Assembly (NCBI RefSeq): GCF_048403405.1
Contig: NZ_CP183134.1
DNA length: 8,150 nucleotides
Direction: 5' to 3' (one strand)
Source: Escherichia coli
Lineage (GTDB): Bacteria > Pseudomonadota > Gammaproteobacteria > Enterobacterales > Enterobacteriaceae
In this document: one piece after another, positions 832-6,635 of the stretch
Numbering within the stretch: the stretch's first letter is position 1
How the letters are laid out: the number at the start of each line of letters is the position of its first letter
The notes under the pieces: model-generated
Seen by the model: the letters and a program-made list of their open reading frames with translations, nothing else
The model's database searches: none
Told to the model about the DNA's origin: nothing
Program-made: the position numbers and the translations under genes

Positions 832-1086
832 ATGAGCAGAACGCTCGAACAGAAGATTGCTGATGCTGAGGCGAGATTACAGCGCCTGAAGGCGAAGAGC
901 CGGAGCCTGGACACAGCGCAGAAGGTCATTGTGGGTGCAGCATTGCTGGCAAAGGTCAGAAAGCCGGAGGAAGTGCAGTTGCGAGCCTGGTTACTCCAGT
1001 TCCTGAAGGCAGAGGTGACACGGCAGGCTGATGTGACGCGAATACTGCCGCTGATTAACGAGCTGGAGGCGCTGCCAGAGCAGTGA
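832..1086 (+). CDS. mobC: MobC-like relaxosome accessory protein (84 aa)
   Basis: Complete ORF with ATG at 832 and GGAG Shine-Dalgarno at 821-824. Divergent from mobA across the putative oriT. The segment QKVIVGAALLAKVRKPEEVQLRAWLLQFL resembles RSF1010 MobC (RKVLVGAMILAKV...) from memory. Confidence 0.65.
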   Translation: MSRTLEQKIADAEARLQRLKAKSRSLDTAQKVIVGAALLAKVRKPEEVQLRAWLLQFLKAEVTRQADVTRILPLINELEALPEQ

Positions 1087-1618: not shown

Positions 1619-2320
1619 ATGTCAGATCTGATAGCTTACAAATCAAACGCCCTTATCGAGGCAAGCTACAAGCTCACTTTGCAGGAACAGCGCTTCCTGC
1701 TGGTCTGTATCAGCCGCCTGAAATCCGGAGAAGATTCCCCTTCGCCGGATGAACAAAAAACCATGACCATCACGGCTGCAGAGTTTCATGATGCCTTTCC
1801 TGACATGGGACGGCAGCACGCTGAAGCTAGGCTCAAGGAAGCGATAGATCGCCTCTGGGACAGGTCAGTAATCATCAAGAACGAGGAAAAACGAGAAGAG
1901 TTCCGCTGGGTGCAGTACCGGGCGCAGTATTTCAAAGGTGAGGCGAAAGTAGAGATCACCTTCTCCGATGCCATCATGCCGTATCTGACACAGCTCAAGG
2001 GGCAGTTTACGCGGGTAGTCGTGAAGAACGTCTCCAGCCTCTCCAGCACCTACAGCATCCGCATTTACGAGCTGCTCCAGCAGTTCCGCAGCACCGGTGA
2101 CAGAACGATAGCTATCGATGATTTCCGAACCATGCTTGCCGTTGAAGATAAATATCAACAATTCAAAGACTTGAATAAGATGATAATCAAGCCAGCCATC
2201 GCCGAACTGAACGAAAAAAGCGATCTGGTTGTAACGGTTGAGACGATCAAAAAGGGGCGCACGGTTGTAGCCCTGCACTTTCGCTTCAAGGAAGACAAAC
2301 AGATCAAGATGACGATCTAG
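1619..2320 (+). CDS. repA: Rep_3-family iteron-binding replication initiator (233 aa)
   Basis: Complete ORF directly downstream of the iterons. N-terminus MSDLIAYKSNALIEASYKLTLQEQRFLLVCISRL and later segments (ITFSDAIMPYLTQLK, YSIRIYELLQQF) resemble pSC101/pPS10-type RepA as I recall them. Weak Shine-Dalgarno. Confidence 0.88.
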   Translation: MSDLIAYKSNALIEASYKLTLQEQRFLLVCISRLKSGEDSPSPDEQKTMTITAAEFHDAFPDMGRQHAEARLKEAIDRLWDRSVIIKNEEKREEFRWVQYRAQYFKGEAKVEITFSDAIMPYLTQLKGQFTRVVVKNVSSLSSTYSIRIYELLQQFRSTGDRTIAIDDFRTMLAVEDKYQQFKDLNKMIIKPAIAELNEKSDLVVTVETIKKGRTVVALHFRFKEDKQIKMTI

Positions 2321-2366: not shown

Positions 2367-2427
2367 TGTCAGGAATGCGAAGGTACTATTGAAGTGAAAA
2401 GTTGCGTCAAAAACGCTCTGATGCAGC

Positions 2428-2454
2428 AAAAAAAGAACCCCCAATTTTTGGGGG
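2428..2454 (-). terminator. Rho-independent terminator for minus-strand (mobA) transcription
   Basis: GC-rich hairpin CCCCCAA-ttt-TTGGGGG (2438-2454). On the minus strand it is followed by a U-run (the A7 at 2428-2434 on plus). About 108 nt downstream of the mobA stop. Confidence 0.5.
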
Positions 2455-2561
2455 CGGAAAAACAAAACTATGTTTGCGCTATGTGAGTGTGCTTCTTGCA
2501 TTCATCCCTGTCGATGAACATCGACGAACATAACACGATGTTAAACAAAACAAAATATTGT

Positions 2562-4727
2562 TCACATTCCCTGTGACCAACCGCGATCAGGTCTCCTCTC
2601 GGTGGCGTGTGTTCGTGCATCTTCCTCGCGCCGCCATTCGTCCCAGGTACGATTGAAACCCAGCGAGCGGAACAGATGATCCGGCTGTTTTTCTGGTGTG
2701 TTGACGACAGCAAAAAGCGGTGCCTCACGGGTTTTCAGATGAAACTCCATAAGTTCCGGTGCAGGTGATATGTGGCTGTCTGCATCATGATTTACGGCAA
2801 CACCATACCCTGCATACCGTAACCCCTTATCGGTCAGTGCACTGATAACCAGCTGGCTGTTATCGGCTGAGGGAACGGCAAACGCGGGATACAGCGTACC
2901 ATTAAGCCGGACAACACCGCCCAGAGAGTCATCCACGCCCATGACCAGCAAAAGCTGAAGCTGGCGGGTTTCCCGGTCGACAGAACTCATGACCGGCATC
3001 AGCGTCGGTGGCAGACGTCCCTGCGTAAAATCCACCTTCCTTGCTGCCAGTGATGGCATGGCTGGCTGGCGGTCTTCTCCAAGACAGAAAGACTCCGGCC
3101 ATGTCTTCGGCTGGCGGAGATTGCGGGTATGTTGCGGCCATGTCTGGCAAACCTGCGTCAGAAGTTGCTCAAAGGTCGCAGAGGAATAAATACGTTGCAG
3201 TGGTGGATGTTGGCCGATTTCGCTTCGGTCACAGATATAACCACTCCTGTCACGTATTAAATCAACACTCTCAAAGATCCTGGTGCGGTATTTCTCCAGC
3301 TCGTTCCCCCAGAGCGTGTATTCTCCGTTCCGGTTGTGAAGCAGAAGGTAACAAGTCATTTCCCCGTTACCAGGCATGGGAGCCTCGCCATACCCCGTAA
3401 CGACTGCTCTCAGCACCCCTGAATCCATAACGGCATTGTCATTTTTCCTGAGCTGTTCCGCTCGTCGCTCCGCGCGACTACGTTCTGTATCCTCCAGCTC
3501 CTTCCGGCGTAATTCATCTTCACGTTTAAGCAACTGGGCTCTGAGAGCTGCAAGGCCGGATTCCCCCCACTGCTGCCACTGTTTTTCAAATGCCGTCTGA
3601 CTCGCGGGAATGTCCTGTTTCTCCACCTTCCGGTAATGCTGTCGCAATTTTTCCATTTGCTGGCTCAGAGACTGGATTTTTCCCTGCTCACTACGGTATT
3701 CCGGTGCAGCCCATTGCATCAGGGGAATACGGGAAAAACCGGACGAAAACGGCGATGATTTTTTCAGGCTGGCAGCATGGCTCATCGCTTCCTTTCGTTC
3801 GGTGTTCAGCTCTTCCCAGCGTCTGCGCGTCGCCTGCATATCTGCCATCATCGACATGGCGTTACTGGTGAGTTTCCATGCCGCGTTACTGTCCTTCGGC
3901 AACGCTTCGATGATGTCACGTAGTGTGTACGAAGTTGCGTTGTCAGGAAGCCCGATATTCAGAAGGTCAGCCACACGGCGGGCAGGCTCTGTCAGCCCGC
4001 TGTTCCTGAGTTCGGTGCGGGAAATCTGTATTTCCAGGTTAAGCCTGTTAATCAGACGATTCTGTTCGCCGCGTTCTGTTTCGATACCGCGTGTTTCCAT
4101 CGCACAGGCAGACTTTCCGAGGTGAATACCCGGCGTTTTCTCAAGCCCCTGTCGCTCGTATGAACGATGGTCTATCTCTTTCTGATAACCGGCGTTCGCC
4201 AGTGCCCTGTTTGCATGGTCAGCCCATGATGCACGCCACGTCTCGGCATGTGTCCGGTCGTTCCAGTCCCTGACCTTTCCGCCGAACCCCGCAGGTCCGA
4301 CAGCCCTCGTGGTCAGCATAATGTGCGCATGGGGATTTGTTTTATCCATGTGATGGAACGCCACATCAGCAATCATGCCCTGACTGACAAAGTTTTCTCT
4401 GACAAAGGCGAGAACGGTTTCCCGTGCGGCATCCTGCGGCAGTTCGTGGGGGATGGCGAGTTCAATTTCCCGCGCAAGTTGTGAGTTCTTCCGGCGTTCG
4501 GCCTTCTCAACGGCATTCCAGAGTTCGGCACGGTTCGTACACCAGGCAGGGGCTGTCGCGGGGGTCAGAATCACAGCCTCAGCCACACCGCTTTTGCGGG
4601 TGTAGTCGTGAGTCAGTCCGGTACGCTCATCAAGCATTAGTGAACCAGAACGATAGGCAGCAGAAGCAACGGCGCTGTAGCCGTTGCTTCTGGAGATGAT
4701 TTTCATACTGAGATGATAAATCGCCAT
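2562..4727 (-). CDS. mobA: MobA/MobL-family relaxase, MOBQ-like (721 aa from the MAIYHL start; the ORF track extends to an upstream ATG at 4814)
   Basis: N-terminal MAIYHLSMKIISRSNGYSAVASAAYRSG (Tyr at residue 25, as in RSF1010 MobA), histidine motif NPHAHIML, and WADHANRAL, IDHRSYERQG, GIHLGKS, METRGI all parallel RSF1010 MobA motifs. The upstream ATG at 4812-4814 overlaps the nic-like motif and has no Shine-Dalgarno. Confidence 0.85.
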   Translation of the reverse strand: MAIYHLSMKIISRSNGYSAVASAAYRSGSLMLDERTGLTHDYTRKSGVAEAVILTPATAPAWCTNRAELWNAVEKAERRKNSQLAREIELAIPHELPQDAARETVLAFVRENFVSQGMIADVAFHHMDKTNPHAHIMLTTRAVGPAGFGGKVRDWNDRTHAETWRASWADHANRALANAGYQKEIDHRSYERQGLEKTPGIHLGKSACAMETRGIETERGEQNRLINRLNLEIQISRTELRNSGLTEPARRVADLLNIGLPDNATSYTLRDIIEALPKDSNAAWKLTSNAMSMMADMQATRRRWEELNTERKEAMSHAASLKKSSPFSSGFSRIPLMQWAAPEYRSEQGKIQSLSQQMEKLRQHYRKVEKQDIPASQTAFEKQWQQWGESGLAALRAQLLKREDELRRKELEDTERSRAERRAEQLRKNDNAVMDSGVLRAVVTGYGEAPMPGNGEMTCYLLLHNRNGEYTLWGNELEKYRTRIFESVDLIRDRSGYICDRSEIGQHPPLQRIYSSATFEQLLTQVCQTWPQHTRNLRQPKTWPESFCLGEDRQPAMPSLAARKVDFTQGRLPPTLMPVMSSVDRETRQLQLLLVMGVDDSLGGVVRLNGTLYPAFAVPSADNSQLVISALTDKGLRYAGYGVAVNHDADSHISPAPELMEFHLKTREAPLFAVVNTPEKQPDHLFRSLGFNRTWDEWRREEDARTHATERRPDRGWSQGM

Positions 4728-4905
4728 TTCTGCCGTAATGCCTTTTTGCAGTTTTCTTTCAGCCCCGCAGGGCGCACACAATCGAAACGGAGTGGAGATT
4801 GTATAAGTGCGCATTTCGTGATTTGCCGTGCATTATGCCAGCTCAGTTTTTAAACTACCAGTGACGCGCTAAAATGCGATTTTTCATCGCGCATGGAGTT
4901 ACATC
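4728..4905. other. Putative oriT, copy 2 (nic-like motif at 4804-4812)
   Basis: Identical to 654-831. Confidence 0.5.
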
Positions 4906-5169: not shown

Positions 5170-5229
5170 CCGCTCGCCGCAGCCCAGCGACCGAGCGTTA
5201 GCGAGCGAGTGGGCGAGGAAGCGGAAGTG
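5170..5229. other. ColE1/pMB1-like conserved segment (possible primosome assembly site), copy 2
   Basis: Identical to 1096-1155. Confidence 0.35.
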
Positions 5230-6528: not shown

Positions 6529-6635
6529 CGGAAAAACAAAACTATGTTTGCGCTATGTGAGTGTGCTTCTTGCATTCATCCCTGTCGATGAACATCGACG
6601 AACATAACACGATGTTAAACAAAACAAAATATTGT

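Follow-up and report, generated by a model that had tools for sequence, protein, structure and literature searches.

The repeats downstream of the relaxase gene mobA belonged to a non-coding element of about 65 nt (2499-2563), which was part of the mobA module of pIGWZ12-type / MOBQ41 plasmids. It was a real, selected and undescribed cis element in a known plasmid family, and nothing about it was categorically new. The analysis established its position, its linkage to mobA, the purifying selection acting on it and the absence of a Xer site. The reading that we preferred, tentatively, was that the block acted at the RNA level within the 3' untranslated region of mobA and might be a small RNA that stops at the terminator. 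It was by inference that we took RNA as the active form and proposed how it would act.

Plasmids of this type have been called cryptic, yet they are common. The parts described in the MOBQ41 literature were oriV, oriT, rep, mobA and mobC (PMC6856555), and this constrained stretch was not among them. The literature on the family that we covered, which included this paper, did not mention the stretch between the mobA stop codon and its terminator. If the block controlled relaxase expression or gave rise to a small RNA, it would be relevant to the way in which these plasmids adjust their transfer. As a DNA site, it would represent a missing maintenance or transfer element.

The plasmid and the position of the block

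The window (the whole analysed stretch of 8150 bases) contained a 4074-bp circular plasmid in about two head-to-tail copies, the second of which started at 4075. At a period of 4074 the two copies were identical save for one substitution, at 3918 (which corresponds to 7992 in copy 2), and changes after 8043. These later changes in copy 2 comprised a few substitutions of A to G and two single-base insertions, and mobA was disrupted there. The head-to-tail arrangement could be a true dimer or a concatemer from long-read assembly. Further dimer-length records of the family were NZ_CP134665.1 (8146 bp) and the metagenome contigs L027, L030, L032 and L043.

The plasmid was 99.9% identical to many 4074-bp plasmids of E. 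coli and Salmonella, and the RefSeq annotation of an identical record listed three genes (initiator, MobQ-family relaxase and MobC). It belongs to the pIGWZ12-type / MOBQ41 family described by Garcillan-Barcia et al. 2019 (PMC6856555). Its main features were as follows.

832-1086, plus strand: MobC gene (RefSeq annotation)
1326-1334: perfect DnaA box in the origin upstream of rep, with an A+T-rich stretch
1432-1519: four 22-bp iterons GATAGGTGGAGCTTTTGGGGGT in the origin upstream of rep
1619-2320, plus strand: rep, Rep_3-family initiator gene, convergent with mobA (Pfam Rep3_N 3.1e-41, Rep3_C 2.7e-22)
2427-2455, minus strand: intrinsic terminator of mobA, with the GCCCCCAAAAATTGGGGGT stem at 2455-2437 followed by TCTTTTTTTG
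2562-4814, minus strand: mobA / mobQ relaxase gene, longest ORF of 750 aa, RefSeq start at 4727 (MobA_MobL 3.4e-70; NCBIfam MobQ 8.5e-79)

An RSF1010-like nick region was present on the plus strand, where the inverted repeat ACAATC (704-709) / GATTGT (723-728) was followed by TAAGTGCGCA (730-739). From this likeness, the nick was probably near 737/738 (TAAGTGCG/CA within 730-739) and the plus strand was probably the transferred one. After mobC there was a non-coding element of about 58 bp (1096-1153; 5170-5227 in copy 2) that contained GAGCGTTAGCGAGCGAGTGGGCGAGGAAGCGGAAG and was 97-100% conserved in the family. The same element was common to more than 5000 plasmid records, mostly ColE1-like, at 88-93% identity, and we presume that it resembles the ColE1/pBR322 primosome assembly (n') site.

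Two observations concerned the 3' part of mobA itself. Among its C-terminal codons, a piece of 82 nt (2679-2760) matched, at 85% identity, the sogL primase / LPD7-domain gene that more than 1300 IncI1-type conjugative plasmids carry, and this piece could be a recognition signal for the transfer machinery of a helper. The protein similarity to SogL was reported to be low, and the IncI1 plasmid R64drd11 was the best helper (PMC6856555). In addition, position 2570 was C in the window and in two other sequences and A in 53 of the 56 family sequences. The C placed GGA in the loop of a small hairpin that ended mobA (minus strand UCACA-GGGAA-UGUGA).

The stop codon of mobA (TGA) was located at 2564-2562 on the minus strand, and the repeats marked by the initial annotation were 17-51 nt downstream of it. 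The hairpin at 2455-2437 was the only good minus-strand terminator; its stem was retained in every lineage and its loop differed. Since the block was located between the mobA stop codon and this terminator, it should be transcribed together with mobA and stay untranslated. The initial annotation had held that the block was no canonical terminator, and we agreed, as no terminator was called inside 2490-2565 and that of mobA was at 2455-2437.

The repeats and the A-rich tract of the initial annotation, four features altogether, were all found exactly where it had placed them, and a palindrome and an extra repeat could be added to them. The parts of the block were as follows.

2499-2507: left arm CATTCATCC
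2499-2506 and 2513-2518: extra repeat CATTCATC / GATGAA, not in the initial annotation
2510-2525: 16-bp palindrome GTCGATGaaCATCGAC, that is GTCGATG-aa-CATCGAC, made by the repeat unit and not in the initial annotation
2511-2530: tandem 10-bp direct repeat, TCGATGAACA (2511-2520) / TCGACGAACA (2521-2530), 9 of 10 bases identical
2517-2542: perfect inverted repeat AACATCG (2517-2523) / CGATGTT (2536-2542) with a 12-nt spacer, followed by the A-rich tract AAACAAAACAAAATA
2526-2557: near-invariant 32-nt core GAACATAACACGATGTTAAACAAAACAAAATA, 4 of 32 sites variable
6585-6619: second copy of the block, identical over the region because the plasmid was written twice

Within the single sequence these features were not all exceptional. 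A tandem 10-mer with at most one mismatch occurred in 9.7% of dinucleotide shuffles of the plasmid and was thus mildly unusual. A lone 7-bp inverted repeat was within chance (5.6 per shuffled plasmid). Inverted repeats of at least 6 bp in 2495-2575 numbered 5, against 0.9 +/- 1.2 expected, a count that about 1% of shuffles reached.

Small ORFs on both strands were rejected as coding genes, since indels or stop codons in relatives interrupted them. A 10-bp indel shifted the 20-codon plus-strand ORF that started with the ATG at 2514, and the inner ATG at 2538 became ATG-TAA in L015, L045 and L092. Since these variants broke the small plus-strand ORFs, the block was not coding. A 65-aa ORF (2304-2501) ran through the terminator.

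Conservation, repeat copy number and linkage to mobA

Relatives of the plasmid comprised 15 complete plasmids from PLSDB and 75 loci from one unbiased metagenome scan, the pattern for which was a stretch of the mobA coding region about 100 nt off the block with all third codon positions free. The initial annotation had proposed a comparison of the block among related plasmids and had named a lack of conservation among homologous plasmids as counting against it; conservation was found. Diversity in 56 distinct family sequences was distributed as follows.

2526-2557, core: 4 of 32 positions variable, pi 0.010
mobA third-codon positions just beyond: 18 of 33 variable, pi 0.080
2321-2498, other non-coding positions: 93 of 159 variable, pi about 0.10

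The core was thus about eight times less diverse than the neighbouring synonymous sites of mobA (Fisher p = 5e-4), and it also differed from the other non-coding positions (Fisher p = 1e-6). Within the surrounding 500 bases it was the most strongly constrained non-coding sequence. Even in L015, the most divergent lineage, 31 of 32 core positions matched the window, as compared with 73 of 97 in the adjacent part of mobA and 135 of 186 in the rest of the intergenic region. The left arm was invariant. The most variable part of the block was 2519-2526, inside the direct repeat, and the most variable part of the whole region was the untranslated stretch 2456-2498, which also had indels. Since the core varied far less than synonymous mobA sites, these alignments indicated that the block was under purifying selection.

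The 10-bp unit was a copy-number polymorphism. Relatives had two or three copies, in most cases three, and the three-copy form read TCGATGAACA-TCGAAGAACA-TCGACGAACA; approximately 294 of the 438 PLSDB records matched in this form. The window retained units 1 and 3 and L004 retained units 1 and 2. As the two lacked different units, the losses were independent. The presence of two or three units in relatives, with different losses by lineage, therefore indicated that the direct repeat was real. The palindrome at 2510-2525 was kept in L014 with different bases, TCATGTGA-acg-TCACATGA, and was lost in L015 and L092.

In PLSDB the block occurred only in the pIGWZ12-type family, save for a small number of large plasmids in which IS26 bounded a mosaic of small-plasmid pieces. 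It was present in 411 of 5426 complete E. coli genomes (approximately 1 in 13), almost always on the 4-kb plasmid. Across the set of relatives, column conservation was 95-99% in the block, 90-100% in the mob module and 50-80% in rep and the iterons. In L016 and L044 the rep module was kept to about 2415, and beyond it there was other DNA without the block, with mobA missing or cargo in its place; thus, the block was not needed for replication. It also stayed constant while rep and the iterons diverged, which argued against co-evolution with Rep or with initiator specificity. On the evidence of these alignments, the block travels with the mobA module and not with rep or the iterons. The sister MOBQ42 (ColE2-like) plasmids shared the relaxase, lacked the block and had the terminator directly after mobA.

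The family was also a mosaic in other respects. Subgroups were some 25-27% different in the iterons and most of rep (approximately 1395-2200 of the window). They were near-identical in roughly the last 110 nt of rep (2206-2320), in the next 25 nt and in the whole mob module. This pattern suggests that replication-specificity cassettes were exchanged by recombination within a constant frame. A small-plasmid mosaic adjoined an IS26 end in L019 (4974-5710 of the IncF/IncR plasmid NZ_CP116982.1), where two inverted copies of the block region (window 2484-2562 and 2558-2413) enclosed a ColE1-type oriT fragment and a piece of a 1.5-kb plasmid. Its junctions at about 2413-2415 and 2556-2562 were the same places where L016 and L044 lost homology.

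It was very unlikely, in our judgement, that the block had no function of its own and was a slippage-prone repeat with leftover palindromes carried along with a conserved mob module. The whole module was indeed 90-100% conserved in the family, the copy number of the repeat varied freely, the single-sequence statistics were weak, and metagenome contig L077 had everything left of 2541 replaced. However, the eightfold lower diversity of the core was measured against synonymous sites only a few bases off, and 30-32 of its 32 positions were identical where the adjacent mobA was 75-85% identical.

On the left side, L077 had a DNA methyltransferase-like ORF of low G+C (136-1488 of the contig; 450 aa, DPPF motif), joined to the plasmid exactly at window position 2541 (junction 1453). 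This ORF terminated in the A-rich tract of the block. This metagenome contig was short and of low coverage, and it may represent a genuine variant with cargo or an assembly chimera. Another contig, L054, with an apparent join between the mob module and a different replicon, was uninformative.

Candidate recombination and protein-binding sites

The initial annotation had noticed that CGATGTTAAAC loosely resembled a XerD arm and had added that the spacing and the partner arm did not fit a dif or cer site. Our scores supported this view. We used a weight matrix built from ten known sites (plus the L018 site) on both strands with spacers of 6-8 bp. As a XerD arm, CGATGTTAAAC scored 7.5 bits; real arms reached 16-19, and in an average shuffle the best arm scored 9.9. 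The weight-matrix scan found no XerC arm at 6-8 bp from it. The best two-arm score in the whole plasmid was 11.7, against at least 27 for real sites and 12.8 for the 95th percentile of shuffles. Twelve 10-mers per plasmid copy matched the XerD consensus TTATGTTAAAT as well as CGATGTTAAAC did, that is 24 in the window against 16.4 +/- 4.2 expected. Moreover, positions 2536, 2542 and 2544, three of the four variable sites of the core, were all inside the supposed arm.

Thus, by sequence the block does not qualify as a Xer recombination site, and the scan recognised none of the cer/psi type anywhere in the plasmid. A non-canonical dimer-resolution site with CGATGTTAAAC as its XerD arm was the least probable of the readings that we considered, and we hardly expect it to be correct. 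In its favour, 9 of the 11 bases of CGATGTTAAAC matched the XerD arm of psi (pSC101), dimeric records of the family existed (the window included), and the plasmid had no other candidate resolution site, unlike the sister MOBQ42 plasmids. Conservation alone is no argument in favour of Xer. The MOBQ42 relative L018 had a canonical cer-like site, GGTACGCACAA-CAGGAG-TTATGGTAAAT, at approximately 621-648, and such a site has been described for MOBQ42 plasmids (PMC6856555). This lack of a recognisable Xer site set the family of multicopy plasmids apart from its ColE2-type sisters and bears on how such plasmids avoid multimers.

The main rival of our preferred reading, although a somewhat unlikely one, was a double-stranded DNA site for a host architectural protein or a plasmid protein (the C-terminal part of MobA, or MobC). 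The half-sites GATGAACA, GACGAACA, CATTCATC and TGTTCACA would then be set in 10-bp steps (one helical turn) and in inverted orientation, together with the palindrome TAACA-cga-TGTTA at 2531-2543. Several observations were in line with such a site. It was the primary sequence that was conserved, not pairing alone, and this included the would-be loops. The motif GAYGAAYR recurred in both orientations, the density of inverted repeats was above chance, and the copy number shifted by exactly 10 bp. There was also a match to the IHF consensus WATCAANNNNTTR with one mismatch, AAACAAAATATTG (2548-2560), with the A-rich tract beside it.

However, slippage of a 10-bp unit forces a 10-bp step, and the step was therefore no evidence of phasing. 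The repeat units (2519-2526) were the most variable part of the block, and no candidate protein co-varied with it. IHF-like and DnaA-like matches were not clearly commoner than in shuffles; for IHF, sites with at most two mismatches came to 82 over the window, where 62 +/- 8 were expected. The TTG of the IHF-like match was lost in L015, where the DnaA-like box varied as well, as it did in L011.

The following candidate sites were rejected. TTGTTCACA (2558-2566) matched the DnaA box TTATNCACA with one mismatch, and the 6 such matches did not exceed chance (4.6 expected). Within the family, seven of the nine positions of TTGTTCACA varied (2558, 2560-2564, and 2566 by a single gap). None of the consensuses of Tus/Ter, the ArgR box, LexA, CRP, TyrR, ArcA or OmpR, which were compared by eye, fitted the block. 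Rep_3 iterons or inc repeats were also rejected because the 10-bp unit was unrelated to GATAGGTGGAGCTTTTGGGGGT, did not co-vary with the initiator, and was absent from L016 and L044, which had rep.

The mobA transcript and known systems

On the minus strand, RNAalifold predicted three hairpins, namely two stem-loops of the block and the terminator. The two stem-loops were as follows.

2526-2563, minus strand: putative stem-loop I, GAACA...TGTTC with inner pairs, including two bases of the mobA stop codon (RNAalifold; 97% of cells paired)
2497-2520, minus strand: putative stem-loop II, UGUUCAUC-GACAGG-GAUGAAUG (RNAalifold; pi 0.016)

In our preferred reading, the mobA 3' untranslated region, as minus-strand RNA, would carry stem-loops I (2563-2526) and II (2520-2497) and, with them, a U-rich sequence that was strictly conserved. 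This element would act on the relaxase transcript through its stability, its processing or the formation of its 3' end, and the 10-bp direct repeat would be a slippage-prone spacer between two constrained halves. The location and the substitution pattern fitted a function in the mobA transcript at least as well as the binding site for a host or plasmid factor that the initial annotation had suggested.

The substitution pattern pointed to the minus strand. All four wobble pairs of the window paired on the minus strand only, and most one-sided substitutions changed A-U to G-U, or G-U to G-C or A-U. In stem-loop I the one-sided changes were mostly from A-U to G-U, and in the window this stem-loop was not more stable than shuffles. 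Stem II had 8 bp in the window (two of them G-U), 8 bp in L014 and 13 bp in L015. In both of these other lineages it was reached through changed bases, and the extra pairs of L015 came from changes on both arms. The perfecting of stem II at several bases in L015 could result from a single template-switch mutation in a quasi-palindrome and not from selection. The whole 3' untranslated region, including the terminator, folded better than shuffles (z = -3.0), whereas the block alone in the window did not (z = -0.9 for the minus-strand RNA and -1.9 for the plus-strand RNA).

In the alignment, 88% of cells were paired, as compared with about 40% when the partners were slid, in sequences that were very similar to each other. 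Covariation was not significant in this very uniform set of sequences: four pairs changed on both sides, and 68 of the 500 shuffles gave at least as many. The stems formed by the repeats of the initial annotation and those of RNAalifold overlapped and cannot all form together. Loop positions were as invariant as stem positions, suggesting recognition of the sequence itself, for which a protein-binding DNA site would be an equally good explanation. It also counted against the RNA reading that sister MOBQ42 plasmids managed without such an element.

Searches for known families and for pairing partners were negative. Rfam 15 gave no match at E <= 1 over the plasmid, and the best score within 2400-2650 was 18.9 bits, against a gathering score of 50. 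By local scoring, the 3' untranslated region paired with the rep, mobC and mobA start regions no better than shuffled sequences did. Two candidate pairings were rejected: that of 2512-2530 with 2610-2628 was not kept in the divergent L014, and the whole-length duplex signal with the mobC start vanished under local search and matched controls.

We considered it highly improbable that the block was a single-strand initiation signal, whose hairpins in single-stranded DNA would recruit primase or a primosome for lagging- or complementary-strand synthesis. The region was rich in inverted repeats, and mobilisable plasmids need priming on the transferred strand. However, when 2480-2640 was folded as single-stranded DNA, neither strand exceeded the stability of shuffles (plus strand z = -1.0, minus strand z = -1.3), and the wobble pattern favoured the minus strand, while the transferred strand was probably the plus strand. 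Furthermore, the separate element at 1096-1153, which presumably resembles the ColE1/pBR322 primosome assembly site, was already present, and the rep module replicated without the block.

A separate small RNA gene was an unlikely alternative in which a minus-strand promoter in the core, or just upstream of it, would produce an RNA of approximately 95-120 nt ending at the mobA terminator. One candidate promoter was TTGGTC-17-TATTTT (-10 at 2557-2552), and the other had an extended -10 (2535-2527, TGtTATGTT). In this reading the invariant sequence would serve as promoter, as 5' seed of the RNA, or as both. By a simple sigma-70 score, TTGGTC-17-TATTTT and TTTTGT-17-TGtTATGTT ranked 8th and 13th among the promoter-like positions of the plasmid, and the invariant blocks coincided with the candidate -10 and -35 elements. 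The would-be spacer contained three of the four variable core sites and a single-base deletion, 2519-2526 just downstream was variable too, and a U-rich stretch preceded a terminator with a long U tail. On the other hand, a stricter promoter scan called nothing here, and the -35 matches were poor. The putative body of the RNA (2456-2498) was the most variable stretch and had indels, and neither an Rfam family nor pairing with the rep, mobC and mobA starts above the shuffled level spoke for it.

We were equally doubtful that the block and the terminator together formed a small regulatory RNA, whether processed out of the 3' untranslated region of mobA or transcribed from a promoter of its own, with the invariant seed UUUAACAUCGUGUUAUGUUC that would act on host or helper-plasmid transcripts. 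If this was true, about 1 in 13 complete E. coli genomes would have such an RNA on a cryptic mobilisable plasmid.

Among known systems, the block shared with Xer sites (dif, cer, psi, and the cer-like sites of ColE2-like / MOBQ42 plasmids) one XerD-like 11-mer and its location on a small multicopy plasmid that would benefit from dimer resolution. It differed from them since it had no XerC arm, its score was within chance, and its variation was concentrated in the supposed arm. The inc repeats of F and P1 (incC, incA) are likewise short direct repeats downstream of a Rep_3-type initiator gene. Unlike them, the unit of the block did not resemble the 22-bp iterons, stayed constant as Rep diverged, and was lost with mobA and not with rep.

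Structured 3' untranslated regions and the small RNAs derived from them are a general class in enterobacteria. In comparison to this class, the covariation of the block was not significant, and it had no Rfam match. On the other hand, it had the corresponding position between the stop codon and an intrinsic terminator, was conserved next to the stop codon, and had putative stem-loops and a U-rich stretch before a terminator with a long U tail. The plasmid as a whole was of the same kind as pIGWZ12, reportedly described by Zaleski et al. in 2006 and 2015, and the other MOBQ41 plasmids. Namely, it had the Rep_3 initiator, the MOBQ4 relaxase and MobC in the same order, as well as iterons upstream of rep, a DnaA box and a 178-bp oriT.
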